From NCBI GenBank assembly GCA_903885595.1, contig CAISJJ010000068.1, positions 10,671-74,670 of the forward strand: 64,000 nucleotides of DNA. The letters run 5' to 3'. The translations under genes and the position numbers were made by a program. The first letter of the stretch is position 1. Every line of letters begins with the position of its first letter. Shown piece after piece: positions 24,433 through 59,932 of the stretch. The notes beneath the pieces were generated by a model that worked only from the letters and a program-made list of their open reading frames with translations, did not search any database and was not told the DNA's origin. Source of the DNA: an uncultured Bacteroidales bacterium. GTDB taxonomy: Bacteria; Bacteroidota; Bacteroidia; Bacteroidales; FEN-979.

Positions 24433-25364
24433 GAAATACCATATTCAGTTTATTCATCTTAATTGTTTTTAGCACGGTAATTCAGGCTCAGCAACTTCCT
24501 ATCTTTGATAATTACCTCCTGAACCCCGTATCAATTTCTCCTGCTTTTTCAGGAAAAAATTATGCTTTACAGGCATTGTTAACACATCGGAATGAAGCAC
24601 TTAAGATCGATGGTTCACCTGTTATTGGAAATATTAATGTCGATGCCCGGATTTTAAAAACCATGGGTGTTGGTGGGAGCATCATGCTCAATAAAGCAGG
24701 AATTTACAGAAATTTTTCAGCCAATCTGAACTATGCATACCACCTGCAATTAGCCAAGCTGCATTTTCTCAGCTTTGGCATCAGCGCTGCCATATATCAA
24801 AATTCGATCGATTTAACTTCTGTTGTAGTAAATGATCCGAATGATCCCATGCTGGTTAATCACGATAAAATATCTGAATCTTATTTCAATGTGGGAGCAA
24901 GTCTGCTTTATAATTATGAGGATTTTAACATCAGCATCTCCATTCCCCTTCTGTTCAACAACAGGTCATTTTATGAGAACTCACCCTATCAGTATGTGCT
25001 TACCATGAACCGCAATTTTCTTCTGTACTCAAACTACACACTTGGATTAGGGGAAGACTGGAAATTAAAATTCGATCTGTTGTTCAGATATGCGCAGCAG
25101 ATTCCCTGGACTATTGATGTTAGCACGATGGTTAAGTTCCAGGACTCTTACTGGCTTGGGGTATTTTACAGGAAACCCAATATTATTGGTATTACTGCCG
25201 GTGTAGCAATCATCAACAGCATTATAATAAATTTCAATTATGAATTCTTAGGTTCTTCAATGATGGGGAAAAGTGGCGGAAGCTTTGAAGTGACAGCGGG
25301 TTACCGGCTTGGAGGACCATCTAAACCTAAAAAGCCCTTGCTAATAAAAGACTATGCAAGATAA
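24429..25364 (+). CDS. PorP/SprF-family T9SS outer-membrane protein
   Basis: 311 aa with a signal peptide ending VIQAQQ. The N-terminus QQLPIFDNYLLNPVSISPAFSG and the overall beta-barrel-like composition are typical of PorP/SprF. It overlaps the upstream gene by ATGA. Confidence 0.8.
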   Translation: MRNTIFSLFILIVFSTVIQAQQLPIFDNYLLNPVSISPAFSGKNYALQALLTHRNEALKIDGSPVIGNINVDARILKTMGVGGSIMLNKAGIYRNFSANLNYAYHLQLAKLHFLSFGISAAIYQNSIDLTSVVVNDPNDPMLVNHDKISESYFNVGASLLYNYEDFNISISIPLLFNNRSFYENSPYQYVLTMNRNFLLYSNYTLGLGEDWKLKFDLLFRYAQQIPWTIDVSTMVKFQDSYWLGVFYRKPNIIGITAGVAIINSIIINFNYEFLGSSMMGKSGGSFEVTAGYRLGGPSKPKKPLLIKDYAR

Positions 25365-28300
25365 AAAAAATAGCCATTTCCGGAAACCTCTGATATACAG
25401 GGCGGGAAGGATATCCAGGCTCACCCTCCTGATTGTTATATTTTTTCACCTTGCAACGGTGAGTCAGAATATCAGTAAAACCGGGGGCGTATGTTTCAGG
25501 GTTGACAATAACCCTTCATTGGTTCAATTGAACCAGTTTGATTCAATTTTTCAAAAATACCAGCAGAAGTTTTGCCTTGCCATAACCTCATGGGCGCTGC
25601 CGGCTTCTCCCACTTATGTGGCTAGACTTAAAGATTACATCACTTACGGACATGAATTAATGGATAATACCCCGACACATCAGACCCATTATTTCAAACT
25701 ACTCAATATTCAGGATACCCTGCTGTATAAGAACAGTTGGGGGGTGGATCACTTTTGGGGAGACCAGGTTTGTTTAAAATATACTACAATCGACACAACG
25801 ATAGGTCATAATGAAGGACCTGTAAATGTTTTCGGCAATCTGGTGATCAGCGCATATAACGGTGAATTCGCCAATCTGAATGGCAATCCCTATTATCTGG
25901 GTTTATACTTCACTTATAACAACAAATTGTGTATTTGGTATGATCTGAAAAATGTTGATCCTTCAAATCCCGACACCCTTAAACTGAAATCATTCTGGGG
26001 CGAGCCCATCGATATGGGAACCCATTGGTGGACGAGTTATCATAAAATGGCCCAGCGGGAGATATATATGCATCCATCTGCAATTCAGCTGCTTGGTATG
26101 AGATCCATGAAAATATTCGATGACCTCAATATTTCAAGGCCGGTTACCTGGATCCATCCTGCCGGCCAGATGCCATGGATCAATGCGTATAATGTTAAGT
26201 CAAACCTTGGCGATTCGTTGGGTTACACGAGCGGATCGAACTTTGTAAATTCTGCCTACTTCTGCTATAATGAGTTCAATAACTATAACATAAAGCAATT
26301 CTCCTTACAATCGGGCGATATTTCCATTGAGAATCATGATTTTCAATGGAATAAAACACAAATAGCCAATTCCTTTGCCAAGCATTATGTTAAAGTCGAC
26401 GTTTCCTATTTTAACCTTGTACAGAGCGACTGGACGGCTTACCTGAAGCGGGTCGACAGTTTGCTTGCCTGGTGCATAACCAGTAATATCCCGGTAAAGA
26501 CCTATCGTGAATGGAGCAGTTTATTATATGACAGCCTGCCAGCGAGGTTTATCAATATGTTTCCCAAACTCAATGCTGATCTGGATGGAAATAATTTCCC
26601 CGATGGATATGATCAGGATCCTGCATTTGGAGGGATATTTCAGACAACCGGCGGTGTTTCTGAAAGTGGAGGCCGATGCTTTAAAATAGGAGGGGCAGGC
26701 ATTATAAGTCAGATCACAGCGCTGGGCGGCCTTGAGAAGGGGAGCAATATGTTTTCCATCTGGGTACGACGTACTGGTGAAGAATCAAGCAATATCATCG
26801 TCGATTTCATCTTCCCCGAGACAGGAACGAGGCAAACAGTAGAGTTCCCTGTTGACACCACGATTTGGGTGAAAAAAGATACAGTTATCAACGTACCTGA
26901 ATCAGCTTCATTGGTGACTATCCTTATAAAAAATGCTGGCCAAAACCAGGATACCATTAAGGTGAGTGGAATGGATATGCGTTCTGCAGGTTTTTTAAAG
27001 CTGACCAAATATCCTGAACAAAATATTAATGCGAATGAACCATTTGCATCTGTCGACTTGAATGCCCTGGTTGCTGAATCAATTTATCCACCTTCGGTGA
27101 TAACCTGGACTATACAAAGTCATGACACGCTGAATTTGACCATTCTTCCGGGAAAGATTTTGCAAGTGATGAAACCGGTGTCATTCTGGACTGGCAGGGA
27201 CAGTACTTATCTCATTGCCCACAGCCCCGATGGATTAAAAGACAGTTGTTTCATGAATTTTGTATCGAAGCCTCTCACCAGCGGATGCAGTGGCATCCCT
27301 GTTAGGATATCCTTACTTGACACCCTCAGAAACGGGGTGTATGATATAATTCAATGGAAATCTGATCCGTTTGATTCTACTATGTCCGATACAACGATAT
27401 ACAATCCCGTTGTGACCCCTGATACCACCACTACCTATACTGTTACATGTATTAATACGGTCAGTGGTAATATCAACAGGGATACCATCACATTCGAACG
27501 GCACCCGTTTCCGAAGCCCGGACTGCCTGCAGATACAGCCATGTGCAAAGGAGACAGTATCAGGCTGACGGCCAAAGACGGATTTCAATATTTATGGAAC
27601 ACAGGCGACACGCTGGCTTCCATCATGGTAAAGGATACAATTACAACGCAGTACTCGGTTATTGTGACAAGCTCCTATAAATGTTCAACAATTGACAGTA
27701 TTCTGGTTACGGTTTCTGAAAAACCAACGGCTCAGTTAAACGGGTTACTGGAATCGTATTGCCCCAATGACTGGGCCGCGACTTTATATGGGTTGCCTCA
27801 GGGAGGTACCATGAGTTCTACCTCTTCTGGATTTATTGCCGATACGATACAATCAGACCATGCTATATTTTCACCGAAGCTGGCCGATACAGGCATTAAC
27901 GTGGTTTGGTATACTGTAAAACAAAATGGTTGTGCAGATACCGATACTGTTAAGGTTTGGGTTCATTCAGTGCCTAACCCCGATCTGCCTCCTGATACAG
28001 CTATCTGTAAAGGTGATACTATCAGGCTCACAGCCAAAGAGGGACTTCACTTTTTATGGAACACGGGCAACCCGGCCGATACACTGGCCTCCATTTTGCT
28101 TACGCCTGCTGCTACGCGCGATTATACGGTGCAGGCTACCAATTCCTTTGGCTGTTCGGCAACTGACACCACCCATATCACGGTTTCCGACCGATCACTG
28201 GTTGGAGGATTGGTGCCAGCCTATTGCATGAATGACTGGCCTGCATCATTATATGGTTTACCTCCCGGTGGCACGATGAGTTCTAACTCCTCGGGATTTA

Positions 28301-28929
28301 AAGGAGATCCGCTTTTACCTGATAAGGGGCAATTCTATCCGGCCCAGGCCGATCCGGGAGTCAATCTGGTGTGGTATACGGTGCCATTTCCTCTAGGTTG
28401 CGGTGACACCGACACTGTCAAGGTCAGGGTTTATGCAGTGCCTGAAGTATTACCGCTTCCTGACACCATGCTGTGTGGTGGCCGAACGATCACCCTTGAT
28501 GCCGGCACTGGTTTTGATAATTATCTGTGGACAAATGGATCGATGGGACAAACAACAACCGTTGATTCCGCTGGTTATGGCCTAGGTCTTTATGAAATCT
28601 GGGTATATGTCACAAAGGACGGCTGTGTTGCAAAGGAAAATGCCCGGATTACGTTTATCGTATGCCCCGGCTTTCAGGATAAGGAGCTGATAAACGAATT
28701 TTCCCTCTACCCAAATCCAGCGTCCGACGAAATTATAATTAAGGTAAAATCCAATATCCCTGAATTGTTACACATGCAAATTATGGATCTTAAGGGGTTA
28801 ATTGTCAAGCAGATGATCCTTGAAAATATATCCAATAACATACCTGTTGCTGATTTACCGAGGGGTACCTATATCCTCAGGATATTCAAGGGTGTTAAAA
28901 AGGTTGACTATAAATTTATTAAAATCTGA
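25354..28929 (+). CDS. large T9SS-secreted surface protein (type-A CTD) with a unique N-terminal half and tandem Cys-containing Ig-like modules
   Basis: 1191 aa with an N-terminal signal anchor. The C-terminus FSLYPNPASDEIIIKV...GTYILRI is a type-A CTD. It overlaps the PorP/SprF gene by 11 nt. Confidence 0.75.
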   Translation: MQDKKNSHFRKPLIYRAGRISRLTLLIVIFFHLATVSQNISKTGGVCFRVDNNPSLVQLNQFDSIFQKYQQKFCLAITSWALPASPTYVARLKDYITYGHELMDNTPTHQTHYFKLLNIQDTLLYKNSWGVDHFWGDQVCLKYTTIDTTIGHNEGPVNVFGNLVISAYNGEFANLNGNPYYLGLYFTYNNKLCIWYDLKNVDPSNPDTLKLKSFWGEPIDMGTHWWTSYHKMAQREIYMHPSAIQLLGMRSMKIFDDLNISRPVTWIHPAGQMPWINAYNVKSNLGDSLGYTSGSNFVNSAYFCYNEFNNYNIKQFSLQSGDISIENHDFQWNKTQIANSFAKHYVKVDVSYFNLVQSDWTAYLKRVDSLLAWCITSNIPVKTYREWSSLLYDSLPARFINMFPKLNADLDGNNFPDGYDQDPAFGGIFQTTGGVSESGGRCFKIGGAGIISQITALGGLEKGSNMFSIWVRRTGEESSNIIVDFIFPETGTRQTVEFPVDTTIWVKKDTVINVPESASLVTILIKNAGQNQDTIKVSGMDMRSAGFLKLTKYPEQNINANEPFASVDLNALVAESIYPPSVITWTIQSHDTLNLTILPGKILQVMKPVSFWTGRDSTYLIAHSPDGLKDSCFMNFVSKPLTSGCSGIPVRISLLDTLRNGVYDIIQWKSDPFDSTMSDTTIYNPVVTPDTTTTYTVTCINTVSGNINRDTITFERHPFPKPGLPADTAMCKGDSIRLTAKDGFQYLWNTGDTLASIMVKDTITTQYSVIVTSSYKCSTIDSILVTVSEKPTAQLNGLLESYCPNDWAATLYGLPQGGTMSSTSSGFIADTIQSDHAIFSPKLADTGINVVWYTVKQNGCADTDTVKVWVHSVPNPDLPPDTAICKGDTIRLTAKEGLHFLWNTGNPADTLASILLTPAATRDYTVQATNSFGCSATDTTHITVSDRSLVGGLVPAYCMNDWPASLYGLPPGGTMSSNSSGFKGDPLLPDKGQFYPAQADPGVNLVWYTVPFPLGCGDTDTVKVRVYAVPEVLPLPDTMLCGGRTITLDAGTGFDNYLWTNGSMGQTTTVDSAGYGLGLYEIWVYVTKDGCVAKENARITFIVCPGFQDKELINEFSLYPNPASDEIIIKVKSNIPELLHMQIMDLKGLIVKQMILENISNNIPVADLPRGTYILRIFKGVKKVDYKFIKI
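27502..28680 (+). repeat. intragenic tandem repeat: about 2.5 copies of a 154-156-aa module (462/468 nt)
   Basis: Module starts at 27502, 27964 and 28432 align by eye: H.(F/V)P.P.LP.DTA.CKGD.IRLTAK.G...LWNTG...DTLASI...; later ...YC.NDW.A.LYGLP.GGTMSS.SSGF......ADpG.N.VWYTV...GC.DTDTVKV.V. Confidence 0.8.
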
Positions 28930-35003: not shown

Positions 35004-36299
35004 TTAATCCCAATCCAGACTTTCAAGGATGGCAATTAATTCGTGCGGACGGTATGGTTTAGAGATGTACTCGTCCATTCCTGCTGCCAGGCATTTTTCA
35101 CGATCGGTAACCATTACATGGGCGGTTACTGCAACAATCTTGATTCGTTTTGTTTCTTTTTCCAATGCCCTGATCACACGGGTTGCCTCAATCCCATCCA
35201 TAATAGGCATGGCGATATCCATCAGGATCAGATCGTACTGAGAATTTTTAAATTTTTCAACGGCTATTTTCCCATTCTCGGCAAGCTCAACATGATGTCC
35301 CGAACGTTCGAGACTGGTCATTGCAAATTTCTGATTTAATATGTTGTCTTCAACAAGTAGTATAGAAAGCGGCCTCAGTGCTTTTTTTTGAGAAATAACG
35401 CCTAGTCTTTGATTTGTAAGTAGTTCGTCATCTCCTTTGTCGACGACCAATGTGAACCAAAAGGTGGATCCATCTCCTTTTTTACTGCGAACCCCAATTT
35501 TACCATTCATCAAACGTGTGAGGTTTTTTGATATGGAGAGCCCCAAACCTGTCCCTTCAAACTGTTTGATCAGTGGATTTTCCAATTGGGCAAAATCATT
35601 AAACAGGCTTTGCTGTTCTTCGTCAGAGATCCCAATACCGGTATCGGTCACTTCAAATTTTAATAATACTTCACTATCAGGATTCAGTGAGGATGGACCG
35701 GTGATCCAGTCTGGAATAAATTCGACGTTTTGATCGAATCCGCCGTGTTTCAGATCGATGGTTTCAACCGCGACAACAACATGTCCTTCATTGGTGAATT
35801 TGATAGCATTGTTTGTGAGGTTGATGAGGATTTGCTTCACCCTGACGGGATCACCAATAACGCAGGTAGGCACGGTTGACTGGATTTTGGAAAAAAGATC
35901 AATGCCTTTTCCCTTGGCTTTTATTGATAAAAGCCTGATAACCTGGTGGATTTCGTCCTGGAGGAAGAATGGTTTCTGATCCAGTTTCAACTGACCGGCT
36001 TCAATCTTTGATAAATCGAGAATATCATTGATGATTGTAAGCAGGTTGACACTTGAAATGTTGATGATCTCCAGAAATTCCCGCTGCTCGCTGGTTAGCT
36101 CGGTTTGACTTAAAACATTATAAATCCCAATAATACTGTTCATGGGAGTTCTGATCTCATGGCTCATATTGGCCAGGAACATGGTTTTTGACCTGTTGGC
36201 ATTTTCAGCCTCCTGTTTTGCTTTTATAAGGGCACTGCGAACCTTTTCATGTTCCTCTTTTGTGACAAACCCTTCATTATTAGCCTTCAATTCGTCCAT
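35004..36299 (-). CDS. cytoplasmic hybrid sensor histidine kinase (HisKA-HATPase_c-REC) without a recognisable input domain or TM segment
   Basis: 431 aa. The H-box is [14 protein letters not shown], with an N box [10 protein letters not shown] and G boxes DTGIGI and GTGLGLSI. The receiver contains ILLVEDN...[10 protein letters not shown]...KPY. Confidence 0.85.
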
Positions 36300-36300
36300 T

Positions 36301-37713
36301 TTATAATTTATTCAATTGATTTTTAATGATTGAGTAAAGTTCCTGCTGATTGATAGGTTTGGAGATATAGTCATCGAATCCCGCTTCTAAAAGCTTTTCT
36401 TTATCCCCGGCCATTGCATAAGCTGTTTGTGCAACGAAAGGAATAGATTTGTACTCCTTCCATTTTTTTCTTATTTCCTGCATTAACCTGATTCCATCCC
36501 AGGGCGGAGGAAGATTAATATCAAAAAGCATGATGTCGAAAATTTTTCCCTCTTTGTATGTCTGCTCCATAATCCTCATTGTTTCATCACCATTGACCGA
36601 TGTGATCACATTGCCGAGTGATTTTGTCATTTCGTACAACACAATTTTATTCATCAGGTCATCTTCGATTATGAAGATCTCTAAACCTTGCAGCGTTTTG
36701 AATTTCTGCTTGCGCGTTGGTTCCTTGGTAATATGGTCGGTTTTGTTTGTTTTTTCAGGAGGGAAAAAGATGGTAACTGTAGTTCCGATCCCTTTGGCCG
36801 ATTCGATTTCGATGTGTCCCCTCATTAATTCAACGAGACTTTTTGCCAGGGGTAACCCCAGGCCTGCACCTTGTGCCTCGTTGGAATATCCAAGGGTTTC
36901 CTGTCTGAACGGATCAAAGATAACCGGCAGGTAGGAGGGGTCAATACCTGAACCTGTGTCTTTTACCCGTATACAGATTTCATCCTTGTCACCGATAAAC
37001 TCTGTCGAAACATTAATAAACCCGTTTTGCGTATATTTTATTGCATTTTCAACAATTGCGCTGATCACTTTTGTCAACCCTTTTTCATCAACACAAGCCT
37101 GGGGCAACTCGTTGGTCTTTAAATTCAATTTCAGTTTTTGCTCATTGGCTTTGAAGATATACAATTGGGTTGCATTGGCAACGATGGTGTTTAAATCGCA
37201 TGGCTTGAGCACAATCTGCATATCATTTGCTTCAAGTTTGCTGATATCGATGATATTGTTCAACAAATGCAGCAACCGGTCACCACTGTCGGAGATAGCT
37301 CTTGCATAATCATACAATTCCTTATTCTCAAGCAGTGATATTTCCGCTTCCAGTAAACTGGAAAAACCAATGATGTTATTTAACGGGGTACGAATCTCAT
37401 GGCTGATATTGGATAAAAATGCATTCTTCATGAAATTTGATTCCTCAGAACGCTTTAATGCACGTTTCAGAGTGAAATCAGTTTTTTCACCCTCTTCGTA
37501 TTCCTCTTTCATCGATTGAATTCTCTCCTGTATTTTTGTTTCAACCGAATCTTTAAGTTCTTCATTAAGGGCATTGGCTTTACCAAGTTCTGCGGTTTTA
37601 TCTGAAACTGATTCAGCAAGTTGTTTGTTCTTTTTTAGCAGCGTGTACACAAAAGCCAGACAAATGAGTAGCGCAAGAAATAAGAGAATGGGGATAAATA
37701 TTGTATTTTGCAT
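36301..37713 (-). CDS. membrane-anchored hybrid sensor histidine kinase (1 TM, coiled coil, HisKA-HATPase_c-REC)
   Basis: 470 aa. The N-terminal TM is [22 protein letters not shown]. The H-box is [14 protein letters not shown], with DTGSGI and GAGLGLPLA. The receiver contains IFIIEDD...[10 protein letters not shown]...SKPI. It is separated from the next kinase gene by 1 nt. Confidence 0.85.
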
Positions 37714-38539: not shown

Positions 38540-40261
38540 TTAGTTATTCAATATTATTAATTTCCTTGTAACTGCTGAGTAATCAGTTTGAAAAATCAAG
38601 GAATAAACCCCCGGTTTCAACGATTCCCTGTAAATGATGAATTGGTATTTACCTGGTGGTTGAAGCGCTGATCTCCTAAGCATAACCATACGTCCCTGGT
38701 CATCAAGCAGCCGTATGGTAATATCGGTTGAATGTATAAGCTGGTATGCGACATCGCATTGATCTGTGAATGGATTTGGAGAAATGACAAGTTTCAGATC
38801 GGTTAGGTTTCCATGTTCTGGCGTGTCAAGGAGCGAAGAATCGCTACACTCATAGGCTCCTATGTCGTATGAAACGGCAAATGGGCGTGGCCGGTTTATG
38901 TGGTCATAGGAAAGATCGAATCCTGCCACAGGTAAAGCATTATTAACGGCAGGGGAAGTAGATTTCAGGTCAAAAATTTTCAGACCCGGATCCAAAAAAC
39001 CGGGGTAATTGATATCACGGGTGGTGAGGTTTTTAAAAAGAGTCACATCAATTGTAGCCGGACTAAGGTTAATATAAGCTTGTTCCTGGAGTGTTTGATA
39101 GGATCCCGGATCAACGATTATATTATTTGCTATAACATTGCCTGTACTCTGATTATCCGTAAACCGAACACCATAGCTTTTCGGGGAGATGATTGTATTG
39201 AAAACGATCATACAGGAATTGCCAGGAGATGTATATTCAGGGCCGACATAGATCCCGTGTTTTAACCAGGGAGTATAATTCTGGGTTGGTTTATAGGCTT
39301 TTCCCGGGTTTATGATAAGGTTGTTATATATATATTGTTTTCCGAAGGAGATTACGTCGATCCCATCGCCCAGCCCGTCTGTGATTCTGTTGTTGAAAAC
39401 ACTGGCATTCGTGCCCCCGCCAATAAGTATCCCCGACATCTGATACGTGATTGCGAGTTTGCTGTCATTAAGAATCACATTGTCGTGTATGGTGCATGCT
39501 GAATCGGTGGAGCTGACCTGGATACCATCCCATCCTGCTTCCTGGACCAGGTTTCGGTAAACTTTCACCCCTTTCAGCAAATGAGGCAACACAGTAGTAT
39601 CCCTTCCTCCACAGGTAATTACCTGGCCGGCATACTTGGAACTTCCGATATACATACCTTCCATCCCGGTATGGTGGATGTAATTATCATGGATGCTGAG
39701 ATTCCGCAGTGTGTACTTATCCCTGGTTGAGGTGAAAGAACAATTTGGATCAGTTTTGGCAAAAATACCTGCAAGTCCGACATTGCCAATTTCCAGACCC
39801 TCAATCTCAATATCCGTACTCAACCCATCAACAGACAAACCGGCGCCAATAAACTGGTCAATTTTAATTCCATGCTGCAGCGCTGATATTCCAGTGCCTG
39901 ATAATTTTATATAGGAGCAGGAGTCGAATTTAACCCCGTAATTTGATCCGCCGGTAATGGTTACAAGGCCATCAGCGTTTTGGATGATTATAGGGTCAGT
40001 TTTCGTACCATGCATGTATGAAAGAAGTAAAAATGTTTTGATCCCCTTCTTTAAGCAAATGGTATCACCTCCCCTGACCATCGCAGCGTTACTATGGCCG
40101 TTGATCAGGGTTACCGAAGAGTCGACCAGGAGTTTACAGTGCTTGTACTGAGCCTGCCCGATAAATGTAAATGTCAGCATACAAAATGTAAGCAGAAAAA
40201 ACCACGATTTCCTGTAAGCTGCTAAACCTGACATCGTTGAATTATTATCCACGTTTTGCAC
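38540..40261 (-). CDS. right-handed parallel beta-helix repeat protein with a T9SS type-A C-terminal sorting domain (candidate secreted glycan-modifying or degrading enzyme)
   Basis: 573 aa with a signal peptide. Repeated G..I....N..I.NN/HDN turns are typical of PbH1 repeats. The C-terminus LVISPNPFTDQCDV...GVYSLIF is a type-A CTD. Confidence 0.65.
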   Translation of the reverse strand: MQNVDNNSTMSGLAAYRKSWFFLLTFCMLTFTFIGQAQYKHCKLLVDSSVTLINGHSNAAMVRGGDTICLKKGIKTFLLLSYMHGTKTDPIIIQNADGLVTITGGSNYGVKFDSCSYIKLSGTGISALQHGIKIDQFIGAGLSVDGLSTDIEIEGLEIGNVGLAGIFAKTDPNCSFTSTRDKYTLRNLSIHDNYIHHTGMEGMYIGSSKYAGQVITCGGRDTTVLPHLLKGVKVYRNLVQEAGWDGIQVSSTDSACTIHDNVILNDSKLAITYQMSGILIGGGTNASVFNNRITDGLGDGIDVISFGKQYIYNNLIINPGKAYKPTQNYTPWLKHGIYVGPEYTSPGNSCMIVFNTIISPKSYGVRFTDNQSTGNVIANNIIVDPGSYQTLQEQAYINLSPATIDVTLFKNLTTRDINYPGFLDPGLKIFDLKSTSPAVNNALPVAGFDLSYDHINRPRPFAVSYDIGAYECSDSSLLDTPEHGNLTDLKLVISPNPFTDQCDVAYQLIHSTDITIRLLDDQGRMVMLRRSALQPPGKYQFIIYRESLKPGVYSLIFQTDYSAVTRKLIILNN

Positions 40262-52678: not shown

Positions 52679-55339
52679 CTAGATTATGTTCTTTTCATGA
52701 AACCGGAAAGTCAAAATCTGTTTCATCGTTCTTCTGAATTTAGACCTATGGCGCGGAAGTTCACCAAAGATGGCATCAAGGTATATCAATTCTACCCCAT
52801 TGAGAACGATTTGCGTATTTTGCTTGAAGAGTGGAATGAAGGCATTCAATGCCGTACTATCGGCAGTGGTCCATGAACGGTTTGCCCTTGTGACAAGTAA
52901 GGAGAAATCGAATTGCCGGATGAATTCCAGTGGGTATGGATTATTAATCAGGGAAGGTATTTCGACAAAAATATAATCAAAACTCTCCAAATCAATATGT
53001 TCATATCCGACCATCAAGGTTGCGAGGTCCTTTGCATCAAAGAAATTTTCTTTTATCGAATACTGGATCTCATCTTCGGCTGGAGGGATCAGTTCCCCAC
53101 CGGCAATATAGCTTGGATTTCCGCCTGTCTCCTTGACATAATTCAAGAACAGCACATTTTCACCAAATGATTTGAGTTTTCTGCTGAGTTCTCTACCGAT
53201 ACTGGTCTTGCCTTCTGAGTCGCGTGTACTGAAAAGAAGGATCATCACCGGCTTTTTATACTGTGTAATATTGGCTCTGACCAGGGCCAATTTAACATTT
53301 TGAGCCAATATTTCAACCAATCTTGGAATGATGAATCCGATGTCAACCGCATAAATTTGTTTTGCAATCTGGGGATAGACCCCGGCGACTTTGAGTTTAA
53401 TAAAGCGTTCAGCTCTTTCAGGTGTTTTGATCGTTGTATCAAACAATTCCATTGCAAGCAGCAAGGCTACAACCAGAATGAACCCGACGAAAGCGGCAAG
53501 GAGAACAAGTAACAGCATTTTTGACCTGATAGGGTTCAATGGGTAATAAGGAGGGTCGACTACCTTTATATTGGTTCTCAATTCATCATCCTGTTGTCGT
53601 AGTTTTGCCAGGTTCAGATCATGAAGCAGTTGTAAAAACTCACTTTCCGTAACGGCGATCAATCGTTCGATACGTTTCATTTCAGCTCCAAGGGGCGCAA
53701 ACACTTCATAAACATGCTGGAAATATTTTTTCCGTTCGGCTAAAACCCTGAATGCAGCTCTGCTTTCTTCATATGCGATGACATTTTTAAGCCATGCATC
53801 CAGTAATTCCTTGGTTGGTAATCCTTCAACACTGTTGACTACAAGGTACAAGCGGTCGATATTATCCTTTATAGCTTGTTTAATATTTTCTACCCTCGCT
53901 TTCAAACCCTCCACCTGGAGGATTGTTGCGGAATCGTTGCCAAGATCGATCTCAATGTTAGCTATCTGCATGGTAGTCTCCGACAATTCGTTTCGTAATC
54001 GGAGTATTGCGCTGGTGTTCAGCGAAAGTTTGGCATGGGCTTCCAGCTTTTTTTCAATGATTTTGATTGCAGCATCCGAAGAGGCGAAGGCAATTTGTTT
54101 GTTTTGAAGCGCAACGTCAAGTTCTTCCTTGGTTATGGCGATGATTTTTGTTTGCTCGTAATAGTTGATGATGTTGTTGCGCTCATTGAAAATCAACAGG
54201 TCGTTTTCGGCCTTTTTAAGCCTGCGTGCAGCATCCTCCAGCTGTCGCTTAAAATACTGGATTACTGCATCTGTTTGATTTTGCTTAAGCAATTTATAAT
54301 TTGCAATAAAAACGCGTGTTAAAAAGATGAGGGTTTGCTGGCAAATTCCCGGATCAGGGTTGGTGTAGGTCAATTTGACCAGGTCACTGCTCTGGATCCT
54401 GTATATGCCTATTGTTGAAAGAACCTTAATGCTGTAAAACCGGTCTTCCTCTGAACTCCATAATTTATAGATGAAATTATAATTATTCTGATGCCCGTAA
54501 GCCAGCAGCCTTTTAACGATTCTATCAAAAGCAGATGAATCCTGGGTTCCTCTTGTAACAGTGACCAGGGTATCGCTGCTGATAAAATAGTCATTTACTG
54601 AAGAGGATGAATCTCCTGCGGGTGAAGGCTCCGGTTCATATTCCTCTTCAGGTGCGGGAGAGGCCTCCGGTAAATTTTCAATACTGCTGACCAGGAGTTT
54701 TTGTCCGACCGAAATACTGTTGCCCCTTAAATCATTGTACGACATCAATTCGTCCACATTCAATCCATTTGCTTTGGCAATTGAGTACATCGTTTCGCCT
54801 CGCCTGACCACATGATATTTTTTATTTTCATTTGAACGGGAGCGTGACTGGGAATATTCTCCGTTTTGTTCGTTCAGATCATTCTGGTACAGCGACGTGT
54901 CAATTCTGGAGGTTTGCTTTGAAGGAGGGCGGTAATAACGTTTATCATTTCGTTTTGCTTTTTTTACGATATCAACAACATCGGCCGGAACTTTTGCAAG
55001 CAGTTCGTCGTAGTTTTCTTTTGAAATATAACGTGGATCAGCATGATCCAGCAAAAGATGTTGTGCAAGCAGACAAACCGAAACTTCCTCGAGTGTTTGT
55101 CTTGATTTAATAAGGTTGATGAGATTGTCAAACGAAGCAGCCGTTGCCATATAATCGACGGTAGCTTGCTGCTGAACAGAGTAGCCCGATGTAACCCCGG
55201 TATATATTGTCGTTTCGGATACATACGACCATTGACTTTTCCTGGTTAGAATAAAAACAACCGCGGCTATGATCAGAGGGACCAGAATCAGCAAAAGAAT
55301 ATGCCTCTGAAGTAACTTTAGGAAATAAATAATTTTCAT
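52679..55339 (-). CDS. polysaccharide co-polymerase / chain-length determinant (Wzc/GumC-like) with an inserted LysM domain and a degenerate C-terminal P-loop domain
   Basis: 886 aa. It has an N-terminal TM, a Wzz-like start (SYVSETTIY), LysM at aa 175-217 (YHVVRRGETMYSIAKANGLNVDELMSYNDLRGNSISVGQKLLV, nt 54689-54817), a long coiled-coil region and a second TM (LLLVLLAAFVGFILVVALLLA). The C-terminal Walker-A-like motif is FSTRDSEGKTS, and there is no Tyr-rich tail. Confidence 0.75.
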   Translation of the reverse strand: MKIIYFLKLLQRHILLLILVPLIIAAVVFILTRKSQWSYVSETTIYTGVTSGYSVQQQATVDYMATAASFDNLINLIKSRQTLEEVSVCLLAQHLLLDHADPRYISKENYDELLAKVPADVVDIVKKAKRNDKRYYRPPSKQTSRIDTSLYQNDLNEQNGEYSQSRSRSNENKKYHVVRRGETMYSIAKANGLNVDELMSYNDLRGNSISVGQKLLVSSIENLPEASPAPEEEYEPEPSPAGDSSSSVNDYFISSDTLVTVTRGTQDSSAFDRIVKRLLAYGHQNNYNFIYKLWSSEEDRFYSIKVLSTIGIYRIQSSDLVKLTYTNPDPGICQQTLIFLTRVFIANYKLLKQNQTDAVIQYFKRQLEDAARRLKKAENDLLIFNERNNIINYYEQTKIIAITKEELDVALQNKQIAFASSDAAIKIIEKKLEAHAKLSLNTSAILRLRNELSETTMQIANIEIDLGNDSATILQVEGLKARVENIKQAIKDNIDRLYLVVNSVEGLPTKELLDAWLKNVIAYEESRAAFRVLAERKKYFQHVYEVFAPLGAEMKRIERLIAVTESEFLQLLHDLNLAKLRQQDDELRTNIKVVDPPYYPLNPIRSKMLLLVLLAAFVGFILVVALLLAMELFDTTIKTPERAERFIKLKVAGVYPQIAKQIYAVDIGFIIPRLVEILAQNVKLALVRANITQYKKPVMILLFSTRDSEGKTSIGRELSRKLKSFGENVLFLNYVKETGGNPSYIAGGELIPPAEDEIQYSIKENFFDAKDLATLMVGYEHIDLESFDYIFVEIPSLINNPYPLEFIRQFDFSLLVTRANRSWTTADSTALNAFIPLFKQNTQIVLNGVELIYLDAIFGELPRHRSKFRRTMKQILTFRFHEKNII

Positions 55340-56148
55340 TAATCAATTTTATTTATTACGTTAAATTTTATGCCGGCAAACTCCTGCAGGAGCATGTAGG
55401 CATTATAGAAATTAAACCGCGATTCTTCATAGTCGGTAACTGCCTTACGATACATTTCATTGATGTAAGCCAATTCATATAGCGTGATCTGACCGTTGAG
55501 AAATTCTTTATCACCCATCTCTTTTTGAAGCGCCTGGGCATAAATATTTTCATTGGCAATTTTAAGAATACGTTGATTAACGATAAGCTGGTTATATTGA
55601 ACGATAATTAATTTCCGTAATTCAATTATTTGGTTGTCTTTGATTGCCATTGATTTTTCGACCTCTTTTGTTGCGGTTTTTATCCTGTTTTTACGATCCC
55701 AGAAGTCATCCATCGGCAAACGCACACTTACGCTGACAAGCGCCCGGTTATTGTCCTGGTACGATTGAAAGGTATTGCTGATTATCACCGGATTGGATAC
55801 ATCAAAATTCTGTGTATATGAATCCCAATAGTCTGTTTGTAACAATCCATCAATAAATAAATTCTGCATCCATTCCCTTTTGGCAGTTTTGATTTTATAT
55901 TTCCAGATAGCAATGTCTGCATCCTGCGACCGCAGTAAAGGAGAATTTACGATAGCGCTGTCAATAAGGTCTTCCAGCGGAGGAATGCGTAAGGTTATGT
56001 CATCCACAAACGGGTTGAATGTCGCGGCTGAATCCTGGTTGTTGCTGGAACCCTGAAAGAATCCTTGTCCAAAGAATAAAAGTGGAGAACAAAATAGAAT
56101 TAGGACCAATAAAAATGTATGTCTTGTTTTCATATCCACTTGTTGCAT
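55339..56148 (-). CDS. secreted half-size TolC/OEP-like protein (single outer-membrane-efflux-protein repeat)
   Basis: 269 aa with a signal peptide. The pattern LEDLIDSAIVNSPLLRSQDADIAIWKYKIKTAKREW....L, then RLPM.D...R...I..A..E.......... and ...F..G.IT..EL........A...Y......F....LLQEFAGI, follows one OEP repeat. That is about half the length of canonical TolC-family proteins. Confidence 0.5.
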   Translation of the reverse strand: MQQVDMKTRHTFLLVLILFCSPLLFFGQGFFQGSSNNQDSAATFNPFVDDITLRIPPLEDLIDSAIVNSPLLRSQDADIAIWKYKIKTAKREWMQNLFIDGLLQTDYWDSYTQNFDVSNPVIISNTFQSYQDNNRALVSVSVRLPMDDFWDRKNRIKTATKEVEKSMAIKDNQIIELRKLIIVQYNQLIVNQRILKIANENIYAQALQKEMGDKEFLNGQITLYELAYINEMYRKAVTDYEESRFNFYNAYMLLQEFAGIKFNVINKID

Positions 56149-56160
56149 TTTACGGTGTCG

Positions 56161-57393
56161 CTAGACATTTTCTTTTTGAATGAATACTGCGAATGTTCTG
56201 ATAATTAACTTTATATCTGTCCAAAATGAACTGTGTTCTGCATAATAATTATCAAGGGCAAATCTTTCCTCTTCCGACATTGTCCCTTTTGTACCGCGTT
56301 TTTCCACTTGCCAGAGTCCGGTAAGTCCGGCGGCAGCCCTGAAGCGTCGGCTCCATTTCTTTTTTGTCAGGGCCTCGGCTTCATTTAGTGGCAGGGGGCG
56401 GTTCCCGACAATTGACATATCTCCTTTCAGAATGTTGAATAATTGGGGCAATTCATCAATACTGGTCATTCGTATGAATTTTCCGACTTTCGTAATCCTC
56501 GGATCGTCCTTGATTTTCAGGAACGCCTTTTTTGCACTGCGTCGTTTGTTGGCCAGGCGTTCGCAAATTTCTTCCCCGTCATAATAAACAATTGGCGAAC
56601 AAGTGTTACCAGCAGGCAATTTGGCACATTCTGTACAGGATACCTCAACCGATTCACTGATATATTGATTCAGATGGGCGACATCTTTAATCCGTGCATC
56701 GGCATCGGGATACATCGAGCGGAACTTATAAAAATCAAAAATTTTATAGTTGGATCCGACACGTTTGGCAATATAATAAACTTTTCCCCTTGATTCAATC
56801 ATAATCGCAATGACGGCAAGCAACATGATGGGCGACAGGATAAGAAGTGCGAAAAGTGCAATGATTATATCGAAAATGCGCTTCGGTAAAGGTGTTTTAT
56901 ATGGCGTCATATCTTCATCCTGCAACGACATTGGCTTTGGAACATATTCTGTCTTGAATTTGTTCAGGAAAAGAATTCTGCTATGCAAATTATCAACATC
57001 TAATTTTTTATAATAAAAATCGTCAACGCCCATGTTGAAGGCCTCTTGTTTGATAACATCATCCCTGAAAAAGGATATAATGATAAAAGGGGTTTTGGGA
57101 TAGACCTTATTCAGTTTCAGTTTACGGAAAAACAATAACGCATTGATGCCGGGCAGTACAAATTCAGTAACAATGGCATCAATTTTTTGTTTTTCCTGAT
57201 AGACCTTTTCGAAACGGGTATCCTGGTCAAGGTCAAAAAGGTTAAACTGGTTATCTGTTAACCAATGGAGCGCAGCCAGCCCATTCGGTAGGTGTGTGAC
57301 GCTAAATAAATCGCTTTTTTCGAAAAGATCAATGGATTGCTGATCGTTTCCAATATAAAGGATTTTCAAACATCTGGCGGCATCTTCATCCAT
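56161..57393 (-). CDS. priming sugar-phosphate transferase (bacterial sugar transferase / WbaP-EpsE type) fused to an N-terminal atypical receiver-like domain
   Basis: 410 aa. The C-terminal part is KRIFDIIIALFALLILSPIMLLAVIAIMIESRGKVYY...RVG.....F..YKFRSM......DELPQLFNILKGDMSIVGNRP. The N-terminal about 150 aa aligns by eye to a CheY-like fold, with the acidic pair reading ND and the phospho-acceptor position reading Glu (VTEFVLPG, Glu77 codon 57163-57165). Confidence 0.85.
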   Translation of the reverse strand: MDEDAARCLKILYIGNDQQSIDLFEKSDLFSVTHLPNGLAALHWLTDNQFNLFDLDQDTRFEKVYQEKQKIDAIVTEFVLPGINALLFFRKLKLNKVYPKTPFIIISFFRDDVIKQEAFNMGVDDFYYKKLDVDNLHSRILFLNKFKTEYVPKPMSLQDEDMTPYKTPLPKRIFDIIIALFALLILSPIMLLAVIAIMIESRGKVYYIAKRVGSNYKIFDFYKFRSMYPDADARIKDVAHLNQYISESVEVSCTECAKLPAGNTCSPIVYYDGEEICERLANKRRSAKKAFLKIKDDPRITKVGKFIRMTSIDELPQLFNILKGDMSIVGNRPLPLNEAEALTKKKWSRRFRAAAGLTGLWQVEKRGTKGTMSEEERFALDNYYAEHSSFWTDIKLIIRTFAVFIQKENV

Positions 57394-57399
57394 AAAATA

Positions 57400-57798
57400 C
57401 TAGTTCCCCCTGCGTTGCGAGTATAAGTCCTTAAATTCCAGTCGCCGTTTTATTCTGGCAATCAATTCTTTGGGATTAAATGGTTTAAGCACATAATCGT
57501 CAGCTCCCATTTCAAAGCACTTAATTTTATCTGCGCTCTCTTCCTTCCCTGAAAGCATTATCAGCGGAATTTCATCAAAGAAGCCGCTTTCCCTGATCCT
57601 TCGAATAAACTCAAAACCATTTAAAACGGGCATTTCGACATCACAAATAATAACATCAGGAAGGTTCCCGGTCTGCAAATAGAAAAGGGCATCCATTCCA
57701 TTACTTATCGAAGTGACTTCGAAGTCCTTGTTAAAGGTATTTTCGATGATAAACCGGATACTCTTTTCATCATCAATCGCGAGTATCTTTTTCTTCAT
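57400..57798 (-). CDS. single-domain response regulator (CheY-like receiver)
   Basis: 132 aa with canonical residues: ILAIDDE, DVIICDVEMPVLNG, LIMLSG, VLKPF. Confidence 0.9.
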   Translation of the reverse strand: MKKKILAIDDEKSIRFIIENTFNKDFEVTSISNGMDALFYLQTGNLPDVIICDVEMPVLNGFEFIRRIRESGFFDEIPLIMLSGKEESADKIKCFEMGADDYVLKPFNPKELIARIKRRLEFKDLYSQRRGN

Positions 57799-57817: not shown

Positions 57818-57825
57818 CAAATATA
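57818..57825 (-). promoter_or_regulatory. candidate -7 promoter box TATATTTG (minus strand) heading the glycan super-operon
   Basis: Matches TAnnTTTG and lies 20 nt upstream of the receiver gene ATG at 57798. It is the only sizeable upstream spacer (94 nt) of the block. Confidence 0.4.
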
Positions 57826-57892: not shown

Positions 57893-59932
57893 TCACGGAC
57901 TATCCTGAATGGTCAGTTTTTCCAGTCTTTCATTCAGAATCTTCAGTTGATCCCGCAACCGGGCTGCTTCAAGGAAATCAAGGCCCTTAACTGCATCCTC
58001 CATTGCCTTGCGGTTTTTACCGATATATTTCTGAAGTTTTTCCCTTGATAAATACTGAATTAAAGGGTCTGCAGCGATATCGGAATAGTCTTTTTCAATG
58101 TATGCTGCGGGGGAATGTGATTTTCCATTTGCAACCGCTGTCTGACCGAGAATTTCATGTGTGCTTTTCATGATCTGGGTAGGGGAAATGTTATTTATTT
58201 CATTGTACCTTATCTGCTTTTCCCTCCTGCGGTTCGTTTCATTCATCATCCGTTTCATCGATTCGGTGATCTTGTCGGCATACATGATCACCTTGCTGTT
58301 AATGTTGCGTGCAGCGCGTCCTGCTGTCTGGGTCAGGGACCGTTCCGATCGCAGGAAGCCTTCTTTATCTGCATCGAGTATAGCCACCAGCGAAACTTCG
58401 GGGAGGTCAAGCCCTTCGCGCAGAAGGTTCACCCCCACCAGTACGTCGAACGCTCCGAGCCGTAAATTTCTTAAAATTTCCACCCTTTCGAGCGTATCAA
58501 CATCAGCATGAATGTAGCGGCATCGGATGCCTACTTTTGTCATATAATTAGTAAGTTCTTCTGCCATCCGTTTTGTAAGGGTTGTGACCAGGGTTCGCTC
58601 ATTTTTTTTCAAACGCTGATCAATCTCTTCCAAAAGGTCGTCAATCTGGCGTAAACTAGGTCTGACCTCAACGAAGGGGTCAAGTAATCCGGTTGGACGG
58701 ATGAGTTGCTCCACCATGACACCTTCACACTGCTGCAGTTCAAAATCGGCAGGGGTGGCACTTACATAGATGGTCTGATTTACCATGGTCTCAAATTCGT
58801 CAAATTTTAATGGTCTGTTGTCCATCGCCGAAGGGAGCCTGAACCCATACTCCACCAGGGTTTGTTTGCGTGACCGGTCCCCCCCGTACATGGCCCTGAT
58901 TTGCGGAATCGTCACGTGACTTTCATCAATCACCATCAGGAAATCGTCGGGAAAAAAATCAAGCAGGCAGAAAGGGCGGGAACCGGAAGCCCGGCCGTCG
59001 AAATATCTCGAATAGTTTTCAATTCCGGAACAATAACCAAGTTCTCGCATCATTTCAATATCATAACTGACCCGGTCTTCAAGTCTTTTTGCCTCCAGCT
59101 CTTTGCCGTTTTCCCTGAAAAAGGCGCATTGCCTGATCAGGTCATCCTGTATTTCAACCAATGCTTCGCGCATCTTATCCTGTGAAGTAACGAAAATATT
59201 GGCCGGGTAGAGTGTCATCAATTCCATTGACTCAATTTTGCGTCCGGTCAACGGATCGAACGACTCCATTGTCTCCACTTCATTTCCAAAGAAAATAACC
59301 CGGTATGCTACATCGAGATAGGCCGGGAATATATCGACAGAATCACCCTTAACCCTGAACCTTCCCCGTGTGAAATCTCCTTCTGTCCGGGAATACAGGC
59401 TGTTGACCAGCGATTGCAGGAGTTTTTTACGCCCAACCTGATCCCCGGTTTTAATACGGATTACATTCTGATTGAAATCATCCGGGTTCCCAATGCCATA
59501 AATGCAGGAAACAGAAGATACGACGATGATATCACGTCTGCCCGACAACAGGGCGGAAGATGCGCTCAACCTTAGTTTTTCAATCTCTTCATTGATCGAA
59601 AGATCTTTTTCGATATACGTATTTGTAACAGGAATAAATGCTTCGGGCTGGTAATAATCATAGTAGGAAACAAAAAATTCCACCGAGTTCTCAGGAAAAA
59701 ACTGTTTGAATTCCCCATACAGTTGTGCCGCAAGCGTCTTGTTATGGCTGAAAACCAGGGTAGGCTTCTGAACCTGCTGGATCACATTGGCAATGGTAAA
59801 TGTCTTGCCGGAACCCGTTACCCCATTTAAAACCTGTGAAGGATCGCCCCTGTGAATGCCTTCCACAAGTTGCCTGATCGCCTCTGGCTGATCTCCGGTT
59901 GGTATGAATTCGGAGGTGAGTTTGAAATCCAA
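57893..59932 (-). CDS. uvrB: excinuclease ABC subunit B
   Basis: 679 aa. Contains GVTGSGKT, DESH and helicase motifs, and a C-terminal UVR domain (LEAARLRDQL). Confidence 0.95.
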   Translation of the reverse strand: MDFKLTSEFIPTGDQPEAIRQLVEGIHRGDPSQVLNGVTGSGKTFTIANVIQQVQKPTLVFSHNKTLAAQLYGEFKQFFPENSVEFFVSYYDYYQPEAFIPVTNTYIEKDLSINEEIEKLRLSASSALLSGRRDIIVVSSVSCIYGIGNPDDFNQNVIRIKTGDQVGRKKLLQSLVNSLYSRTEGDFTRGRFRVKGDSVDIFPAYLDVAYRVIFFGNEVETMESFDPLTGRKIESMELMTLYPANIFVTSQDKMREALVEIQDDLIRQCAFFRENGKELEAKRLEDRVSYDIEMMRELGYCSGIENYSRYFDGRASGSRPFCLLDFFPDDFLMVIDESHVTIPQIRAMYGGDRSRKQTLVEYGFRLPSAMDNRPLKFDEFETMVNQTIYVSATPADFELQQCEGVMVEQLIRPTGLLDPFVEVRPSLRQIDDLLEEIDQRLKKNERTLVTTLTKRMAEELTNYMTKVGIRCRYIHADVDTLERVEILRNLRLGAFDVLVGVNLLREGLDLPEVSLVAILDADKEGFLRSERSLTQTAGRAARNINSKVIMYADKITESMKRMMNETNRRREKQIRYNEINNISPTQIMKSTHEILGQTAVANGKSHSPAAYIEKDYSDIAADPLIQYLSREKLQKYIGKNRKAMEDAVKGLDFLEAARLRDQLKILNERLEKLTIQDSP

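Follow-up and report, generated by a model that had tools for sequence, protein, structure and literature searches.

Little is known about how bacteria restrain the first, substrate-limited step in making surface polysaccharides, and the demonstration that a response regulator directly controls a phosphoglycosyl transferase (PGT) dates only from 2025 and concerns a single myxobacterial system. There, in Myxococcus xanthus, the phosphorylated single-domain regulator EpsW binds the PGT EpsZ and activates it (Schwabe et al., mBio 2025, PMC12802240). Here we analyse two adjacent genes in a stretch of 64,000 nucleotides (the window) from an uncultured Bacteroidales bacterium (assembly GCA_903885595.1, contig CAISJJ010000068.1, positions 10,671 to 74,670). 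They encode a stand-alone response regulator of 132 amino acids (aa) and a 410-aa protein in which a receiver domain with a degenerate phosphorylation site, a pseudo-receiver, is fused to a small monotopic PGT (monoPGT). We propose that the two proteins together act as a split receiver switch by which the first committed step of a Wzx/Wzy-type polysaccharide pathway is controlled, a reading that we consider rather probable.

Comparison with described systems

The likeness to EpsW and EpsZ lies in the genomic linkage of a phosphorylatable single-domain regulator to the monotopic PGT that primes a Wzx/Wzy pathway; EpsW acts on its PGT post-translationally. EpsZ, with four transmembrane helices and a domain of unknown function (DUF), belongs to the large monoPGTs and has no receiver-like domain, whereas the enzyme in the window is of the small PglC type and carries a pseudo-receiver. 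EpsW has been modelled on the DUF/catalytic region of EpsZ, promoting EpsZ dimerisation, whereas here the pseudo-receiver is the likely docking site. EpsW is fed by a chemosensory kinase. The module of pseudo-receiver and PGT is found across Bacteroidota. The trait of EpsZ-type enzymes, a large monoPGT with a cytoplasmic DUF lacking the β-hairpin, is absent from the window PGT. Because there is neither a large monoPGT nor a DUF, the locus falls outside the EpsW/EpsZ family, and its module may work like EpsW and EpsZ by analogy at most.

Fusions of small monoPGTs to receiver domains occur, and the receivers might be regulatory (PMC12802240, citing O'Toole et al. 2021). The architecture of the 410-aa protein, Response_reg plus Bac_transf, is the same as that of the receiver-fused small monoPGTs in the survey of O'Toole, Imperiali and Allen (PNAS 2021), as that survey is cited in the later paper. 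The text of PMC12802240 citing the survey mentions no degenerate acceptor, no upstream free regulator and no dichotomy of canonical and degenerate fusions. Literature searches on pseudo-receivers or Bacteroidetes PGT fusions returned nothing specific, and to our knowledge a degenerate fused domain, its obligatory canonical partner and this dichotomy are not described in the searchable literature.

The catalytic part is similar to PglC of Campylobacter (8g1n, 8e37), with which it shares the fold, a re-entrant helix with a Ser-Pro break and an Asp-Glu dyad. PglC has neither an N-terminal domain nor a Cys4 insertion, whereas the window PGT has both.

Pseudo-receivers are known from other proteins, among them the plant PRR/TOC1 proteins, which have Glu at the acceptor position, KaiA, CikA, FrzS and the second receiver of PleD. 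In these, as in the domain described here, the receiver fold serves as an interaction or adaptor module after loss of the phospho-acceptor chemistry. We know of none among them that is fused to a membrane glycan-initiating enzyme or paired with an upstream canonical receiver.

The fused domain and its phosphorylation site

Pfam Response_reg matches residues 67-140 of the 410-aa protein with 39 bits, above the gathering score of 30.2. An AlphaFold2 (AF2) model built from a 150-sequence alignment has a mean predicted local confidence (pLDDT) of 83, rising above 90 in the domain core. It contains the full alternation of strands and helices, with β1 at 9-14, α1 at 18-26, β2 at 30-35, α2 at 38-45 and β3 at 73-77 in the first half, and α3 at 85-94, β4 at 103-107, α4 at 112-121, β5 at 125-128 and α5 at 133-149 in the second. 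With the N-terminal half, Foldseek retrieved dozens of solved receivers at a TM score of ~0.8 and a root-mean-square deviation of 2.3-2.5 Å. From the model we are confident that the N-terminal domain adopts a (βα)5 receiver fold.

The position of the Mg2+-binding acidic pair in the β1-α1 loop is occupied by G15-N16-D17, so the pair is not kept, and the acceptor Asp is replaced by Glu77 (AIVTEFVLPG; codon 57163-57165). Three independent alignments agree on this assignment: phmmer against receivers in the PDB such as ArlR (…LIILDLMLP…), BLASTP against the neighbouring regulator (26% identity, E 3e-11, with a 20-residue gap before β3), and MAFFT with CheY. In the AF2 model Glu77 is the last residue of β3, at its C-terminal end. 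Ser107 and Lys129 occupy the Ser/Thr position (end of β4) and the Lys position (β5-α5 loop). In pairwise comparison the domain scores highest with the neighbouring regulator (31 bits), followed by PhoB (16 bits), the receivers of two kinases encoded in the same cluster (13 and 0.6 bits) and CheY (0.8 bits). The initial annotation, made by eye, had thus correctly read a receiver fold with an altered acidic pair and Glu at the acceptor position, fused to a priming PGT, as well as an insertion before β3.

Two sets of relatives were compared. The close set consists of 110 full-length homologues with at least 54% identity, all from Bacteroidota metagenomes. The distant set comes from a HMMER search of 1.84 billion cluster representatives; among the best 150 matches, 139 carry an N-terminal extension of 124-201 aa. 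A merged alignment held 215 sequences. The insertion lies between α2 and β3, where it is modelled as a loop of low confidence; its core of ~20 aa (residues ~49-68) is absent from most of the 215 relatives and confined to the clade of the window protein. Within the close set F53 is invariant (110/110) and T46, F50, Y65 and E67 are conserved, as is W44 just before the insertion, and this α2-β3 region has the motif WLTDNxFxLFDLD. The insertion could be a docking motif.

The acceptor position, which the initial annotation had proposed to survey, is mostly Glu in the close set (E 96, D 8, N 3, S 3; Glu 87%). This dominance does not extend to the family as a whole: the 139 representatives have E 53, D 45, N 11 and other residues 30, and the merged alignment has E 92, D 59 and Q 15, with N, G, S and H also occurring. 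The other phospho-site positions are equally unsettled. Position 16 is N 71, K 15, T 9 and D 8 in the close set, in which position 129 is Lys in 50 sequences. Among the 139 representatives Lys is found in 27, and 108 have Gly as the first residue of the acidic pair (motif 'LYIG'). In the merged alignment Lys is present in 41/210 and Ser/Thr in 88/215, while Gly15 is kept in 163/214 and followed by two variable positions. With column entropies of 2.5 bits (acceptor, 77), 3.3 bits (Ser/Thr, 107) and 3.9 bits (Lys, 129), the phospho-site columns rank among the most variable of the alignment. The full phospho-site quintet occurs in only 3/139 representatives, which belong to a different, regulator-like receiver type, and in none of the fused domains of 76 genome loci. 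Pfam Response_reg is detected in only 44/125 diverse representatives, so annotation-based surveys would under-count this architecture.

These distributions bear on the emphasis that the initial annotation placed on Glu as a phosphomimetic. If Glu77 were a built-in mimic, the domain would be locked 'on' and the PGT would be constitutively active without its neighbour. D-to-E substitutions partly activate some receivers, the close clade strongly prefers Glu, and the window protein retains D17, S107 and K129. Elsewhere in the family, though, the acceptor changes among seven residues, the Lys is kept in only ~20% (somewhat less than half of the close clade) and the acidic pair has given way to Gly, indicating that the geometry of an activated pocket is not maintained by selection; the conserved canonical partner gene would also be left unexplained. 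We consider a built-in phosphomimetic very unlikely. Since the acceptor is variable, the acidic pair is reduced to 'LYIG' and the Lys is mostly lost, the domain is, judged by the alignments, a generic pseudo-receiver and not a locked-on mimic. The Glu is probably incidental, conserved within one clade and freely replaced elsewhere.

Apart from G15, the best-conserved polar residues of the pseudo-receiver are D125 (57019-57021; D 176 and E 24 in the 215 sequences) and R139 (56977-56979; R 173 and K 14). They lie on the β5/α5 face and align to D101 and R115 of PhoB, while the other interface positions vary. The invariant F53 and the conserved R139 could alternatively form part of a pocket, in which case the domain might sense a small ligand such as a sugar-nucleotide or a nucleotide second messenger; binding of c-di-GMP is known from some degenerate receivers. 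The domain showed no known ligand-binding motif, the insertion holding F53 is clade-specific, and a ligand sensor would not explain the complementary distribution of regulators and fused receivers described below. We find this explanation hardly credible.

The stand-alone regulator and its pairing with the fusion

The 132-aa protein is a canonical receiver, as initially annotated. The Response_reg match covers its full length, and the phospho-site residues D9, D10, D53 (ICDVEMP; codon 57640-57642), S83 and K105 are all present, together with Y102 and P106. Its best partial matches among NCBIfam models are receivers of the PhoB, VanR and OmpR type, and its residue numbering coincides with that of E. 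coli PhoB. OmpR/PhoB-family receivers dimerise through the α4-β5-α5 face. The regulator keeps K91, D100, D101, E111 and R115 of this face, and the pseudo-receiver keeps the equivalents of D101 and R115. In contrast to that family, neither partner has a DNA-binding domain, and the dimer proposed here would be a heterodimer of an active and a dead receiver.

Both open reading frames (ORFs) lie on the minus strand at the coordinates initially annotated, and only 6 nt (TATTTT) separate the TAG of the regulator from the ATG of the fusion. A genome scan with one genome per species yielded 80 related loci, all from Bacteroidota except for one Balneolaceae locus without a receiver domain. Of the 79 analysable loci, 76 encode a free single-domain regulator of 121-150 aa immediately upstream of the PGT gene and in the same orientation, and these regulators are homologous to that of the window (E 1e-24 to 1e-55). 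The gap to the PGT gene has a median of 14.5 nt and is at most 60 nt in 73/76 loci. The pairing spans Bacteroidales, Flavobacteriales, Sphingobacteriales, Chitinophagales and Cytophagales. No pair was detected in three loci, which comprise a split ORF (L026), the Balneolaceae locus (L079) and one locus without a free regulator upstream (L041).

The phospho-site of the free regulators is nearly invariant. In 76 orthologues D10, D53 and S83 are each present in 75, and Y/F102 and K105-P106 in all 76; the signature [D/E]-D-D-[S/T]-K was found in 77/78 cases. The interface positions are likewise conserved, with R/K91 and D101 in 74 and E111 in 75 of the orthologues. D101 of the regulator and R/K139 of the pseudo-receiver occur together in 73/75 loci.

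The Arg equivalent to PhoB R115 is replaced in 22/76 free regulators (Leu 11, Val 9, Lys 1, Met 1), nearly all of which also have Gln at position 100. The replacement is seen in Flavobacteriia-type loci such as L019, L022, L027-L031, L033-L037, L050, L053 and L080. The pseudo-receivers paired with these regulators almost always retain D125 and R139, so the change would weaken a regulator homodimer more than a heterodimer of regulator and pseudo-receiver.

Receiver folds are the natural partners of kinases, and the pseudo-receiver might be thought to dock histidine kinases as a pseudo-substrate or membrane anchor that brings signalling to where glycan synthesis begins. In 21/80 related loci a kinase core gene is found no more than 6 kb away, and the cluster in the window encodes two kinases. 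Kinase genes are thus inconsistently present, whereas the regulator is nearly universal, and the face by which kinases would recognise the domain, α1/β5-α5 around the active site, is the least conserved part of the pseudo-receiver. On the hybrid kinases, the other docking partners named in the initial annotation, the evidence points neither way; as the role of the domain, kinase docking seems to us very unlikely.

Canonical receiver fusions

The three representatives with a full quintet gave access to fusions in which the receiver is phosphorylatable. A search seeded with one of them (P0237) returned ~117 sequences and uncovered a group within Cytophagales with members in, among others, Emticicia, Leadbetterella, Algivirga and Spirosomataceae. 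In this set of sequences 39 fused receivers are canonical, and the acceptor of their non-canonical neighbours is Gly, Ser, His or Asn. Test loci were picked by the signature of the fused receiver alone, and their genomic contexts were fetched afterwards. The seven canonical loci (L081-L084, L089-L091), a small sample confined to Cytophagales, have no free regulator upstream, also after a six-frame check. In the four loci with a degenerate fusion from the same clade (L085-L088) the regulator is present each time (128-133 aa, 8-68 nt upstream). In the pooled data a free regulator accompanies 0/7 canonical and 80/82 degenerate fusions. The suggestion of the initial annotation that the fused domain may dock the adjacent CheY-like protein gains strong comparative backing from this pattern.

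In one canonical locus (L090, Algivirga pacifica, BAABJX010000042.1, 3573-3935) a 120-aa Hpt protein is encoded 65 nt upstream of the fusion, in the slot held by the free regulator in loci with degenerate fusions. Its position fits a direct phosphorelay input into the fused receiver.

The canonical fused receivers score 105-140 bits on a hidden Markov model of the regulator family, against 29-41 bits for the pseudo-receivers. In neighbour-joining (NJ) trees the pseudo-receivers are monophyletic to the exclusion of the canonical fused receivers in 200/200 bootstraps. Canonical group A is monophyletic in 197/200 and joins the Cytophagales free regulators in 135/200. The PGT domains of the canonical fusions nest among those of the pseudo-receiver fusions, in a tree computed without bootstraps. 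The simplest reading of these relationships is that the free regulator was fused straight onto the PGT at least once, with loss of the pseudo-receiver. Read in this way, the fusion is Rosetta-stone-type evidence for an action of the regulator on the PGT. Three-part fusions of regulator, pseudo-receiver and PGT were sought among the long representatives and not found; the extra length was due to insertions or N-terminal extensions.

The pseudo-receiver could also be no more than a constitutive scaffold or homodimerisation domain of the PGT. The regulator would then have its target elsewhere, for example in the chain-length protein or a transcription factor, or it would take up phosphate from the hybrid kinases as a sink. 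A homodimer of pseudo-receivers could make use of D125 and R139 just as well. Single-domain regulators often act as phosphate sinks, and the kinases of the window's cluster are hybrid, with no Hpt domain detected among the proteins of the cluster. Yet a scaffold leaves unexplained why the regulator is missing where the fused receiver is itself phosphorylatable, and it gives no account of the fusion of a regulator-type receiver to the PGT or of the short spacing between the two genes. We regard it as unlikely.

Four of these Cytophagales loci (L081, L083, L086, L089) have a gene for a FIST-domain protein upstream of the PGT module, on the opposite strand and beside it. It is accompanied by a divergent NtrC-type sigma-54 activator and/or a PAS/hybrid histidine kinase, a neighbourhood that suggests an additional transcriptional layer.

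Proposed mechanism

In the split receiver switch that we propose, a histidine kinase would phosphorylate the free regulator on D53, with the hybrid kinases of the cluster as candidate donors. The phosphorylated regulator would then bind the pseudo-receiver, which cannot itself be phosphorylated, most likely as a receiver-receiver heterodimer through α4-β5-α5. Binding would alter the activity of the PGT, by activation or inhibition, or its oligomeric state. The module would in this way act as a post-translational gate on glycan initiation, controlling the entry of undecaprenyl phosphate and nucleotide-sugar into the pathway.

Several points weigh against this reading. The adjacency of the genes and their complementary distribution establish a functional link and not a mode of binding. 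The Fisher exact test on the pooled counts (p ~5e-9) overstates the evidence, because the loci are related and the 7 + 4 loci were hand-picked by their signature. The role of D101 and R115 in the α4-β5-α5 dimer interface of PhoB is one that we assume from the OmpR/PhoB literature, and targeted covariation analysis of the putative salt-bridge positions found only conservation, which is phylogenetically confounded. The AF2 model has a predicted TM score (pTM) of only 0.54, too low to place the pseudo-receiver relative to the catalytic domain. Deep nodes connecting pseudo-receiver, free regulator and PhoB have 15-17% support, in NJ trees only, and for this reason we claim closest pairwise similarity of pseudo-receiver and regulator but not that they are sister paralogues. 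Finally, small monoPGTs reportedly act as monomers (PMC12802240), so a mechanism based on dimerisation is not a given.

A wider version of the proposal is that a split receiver heterodimer is the on/off control of exopolysaccharide initiation throughout the phylum, with the canonical fusions of some Cytophagales as its one-protein version. This generalisation is tentative, and our confidence in it falls a little short of even. If true, a membrane glycan-initiating enzyme would for the first time be known to be controlled by a receiver/pseudo-receiver heterodimer, and this logic would dominate the regulation of such loci in a major phylum. The finding points to a solution that is structurally different from the myxobacterial one and far wider, reaching from gut, marine and soil Bacteroidales to Flavobacteriia, Sphingobacteriia, Chitinophagia and Cytophagia. 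In evolutionary terms it is also a clear example of the conversion of a receiver into a pseudo-receiver adaptor. The one-protein and two-protein versions are a natural experiment that makes the mechanism testable in cultured species, for example of Flavobacterium, Mucilaginibacter, Pedobacter, Marinifilum and Emticicia.

The catalytic domain

With the C-terminal half, Foldseek matched PglC (8g1n/8e37; E ~6e-14, TM 0.77-0.81) and also WbaP. K171-R172 at the start of the re-entrant membrane helix are invariant, the helix is broken at L186-S187-P188, and P188 is at least 90% conserved. The catalytic dyad D313-E314 (IDELPQ; 56452-56457) is also at least 90% conserved. The AF2 model contains no further hydrophobic helices and no four-helix bundle or DUF as in WbaP. 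By sequence and model the enzyme is a small monotopic PGT of the PglC type, predicted to start polysaccharide assembly. The four Cys of the Cys4 insertion are invariant in the close set (110/110) and present in ~48/89 distant representatives. AF2 confidence in this region is only 58-84; the insertion may bind Zn or have a redox function. None of the module's proteins scores above the cut-off of an NCBIfam model, equivalog models for the PGT included.

Locus organisation and neighbouring genes

The regulator and the fusion head a same-strand cluster that extends from 57798 down to 33363 (Table 1). After the PGT follow genes for an OEP/TolC-like protein, a Wzz/GNVR protein with a LysM domain, a Wzx flippase, an FkbM methyltransferase and a Wzy polymerase. 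The cluster continues with seven glycosyltransferases, a β-helix protein with a type IX secretion system (T9SS) signal, methyl- and acetyltransferases and two hybrid histidine kinases. Upstream of the regulator a putative -7 box marks the possible start of the transcription unit; it matches TAnnTTTG, which we take to be the Bacteroidetes consensus. A scan for sigma-70 promoters and terminators gave nothing above chance level.

Table 1. Features of the regulator/PGT locus, in window coordinates
Feature	Position	Strand	Basis
Putative -7 promoter box TATATTTG (TAnnTTTG), Bacteroidetes-type, 19 nt 5' of regulator ATG	57818..57825	-	sequence
Single-domain response regulator, PhoB-type receiver without output domain, 132 aa	57400..57798	-	Pfam Response_reg 99 bits
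Spacer TATTTT, 6 nt, between regulator stop TAG and PGT ATG	57394..57399	-	sequence
Fusion of pseudo-receiver and small monotopic PGT, 410 aa	56161..57393	-	
Pseudo-receiver domain, aa 9-149	56947..57369	-	Pfam, AF2, Foldseek
α2-β3 insertion TDNQFNLFDLDQDTRFEKVYQEKQKID, aa 46-72	57178..57258	-	low-confidence loop, pLDDT ~54-76
Re-entrant membrane helix LPKRIFDIIIALFALLILSPIMLLAVIAIMIE, aa 169-200	56794..56889	-	AF2 helix
PGT catalytic domain Bac_transf, aa 171-405	56179..56883	-	Pfam 200 bits
Cys4 insertion in PGT, C253-x2-C256...C265...C277, aa 245-290	56524..56661	-	alignment
OEP/TolC-like protein, 269 aa, directly 3' of PGT	55339..56148	-	Pfam OEP 53.6 bits
Wzz/GNVR chain-length-determinant-like protein with LysM domain (aa 176-217), 886 aa	52679..55339	-	Pfam
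Hybrid histidine kinase 1, 470 aa: N-terminal membrane anchor, HisKA, HATPase_c, receiver	36301..37713	-	
Hybrid histidine kinase 2, 431 aa: soluble, HisKA, HATPase_c, receiver	35004..36299	-	

The OEP-like ORF is present in most of 79 related loci, usually immediately 3' of the PGT, and it is found there also in four canonical-fusion loci (L082, L084, L090, L091). In most related loci it is followed by Wzz/GNVR homologues. No NCBIfam model matches the 269-aa protein. Because no Wza/Poly_export gene was seen in the window's cluster, this half-size OEP/TolC-like protein may take the part of the outer-membrane exporter in loci of this type. The 886-aa Wzz/GNVR protein has a degenerate Walker-A-like motif (…STRDSEGKTS…) in its C-terminal region, possibly a pseudo-kinase domain.

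The two hybrid kinases, the candidate phosphodonors, are encoded 18.5-21 kb downstream of the regulator/PGT pair on the same strand, in agreement with the ~20 kb initially annotated. Both are essentially without a sensor domain, the first having only its membrane anchor and the second being soluble.

The gene immediately upstream of the regulator is uvrB (57893-59932), likewise on the minus strand. This synteny is kept in many Bacteroidales relatives (L001, L003, L006-L009, L011, L015, L016), for no obvious functional reason. The right-handed β-helix protein inside the polysaccharide cluster (38540-40261, -) carries a T9SS C-terminal sorting domain; once secreted, it could trim the product as a glycan lyase or hydrolase. 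A second T9SS-tailed protein, of 1191 aa, is encoded at 25354-28929 (+).

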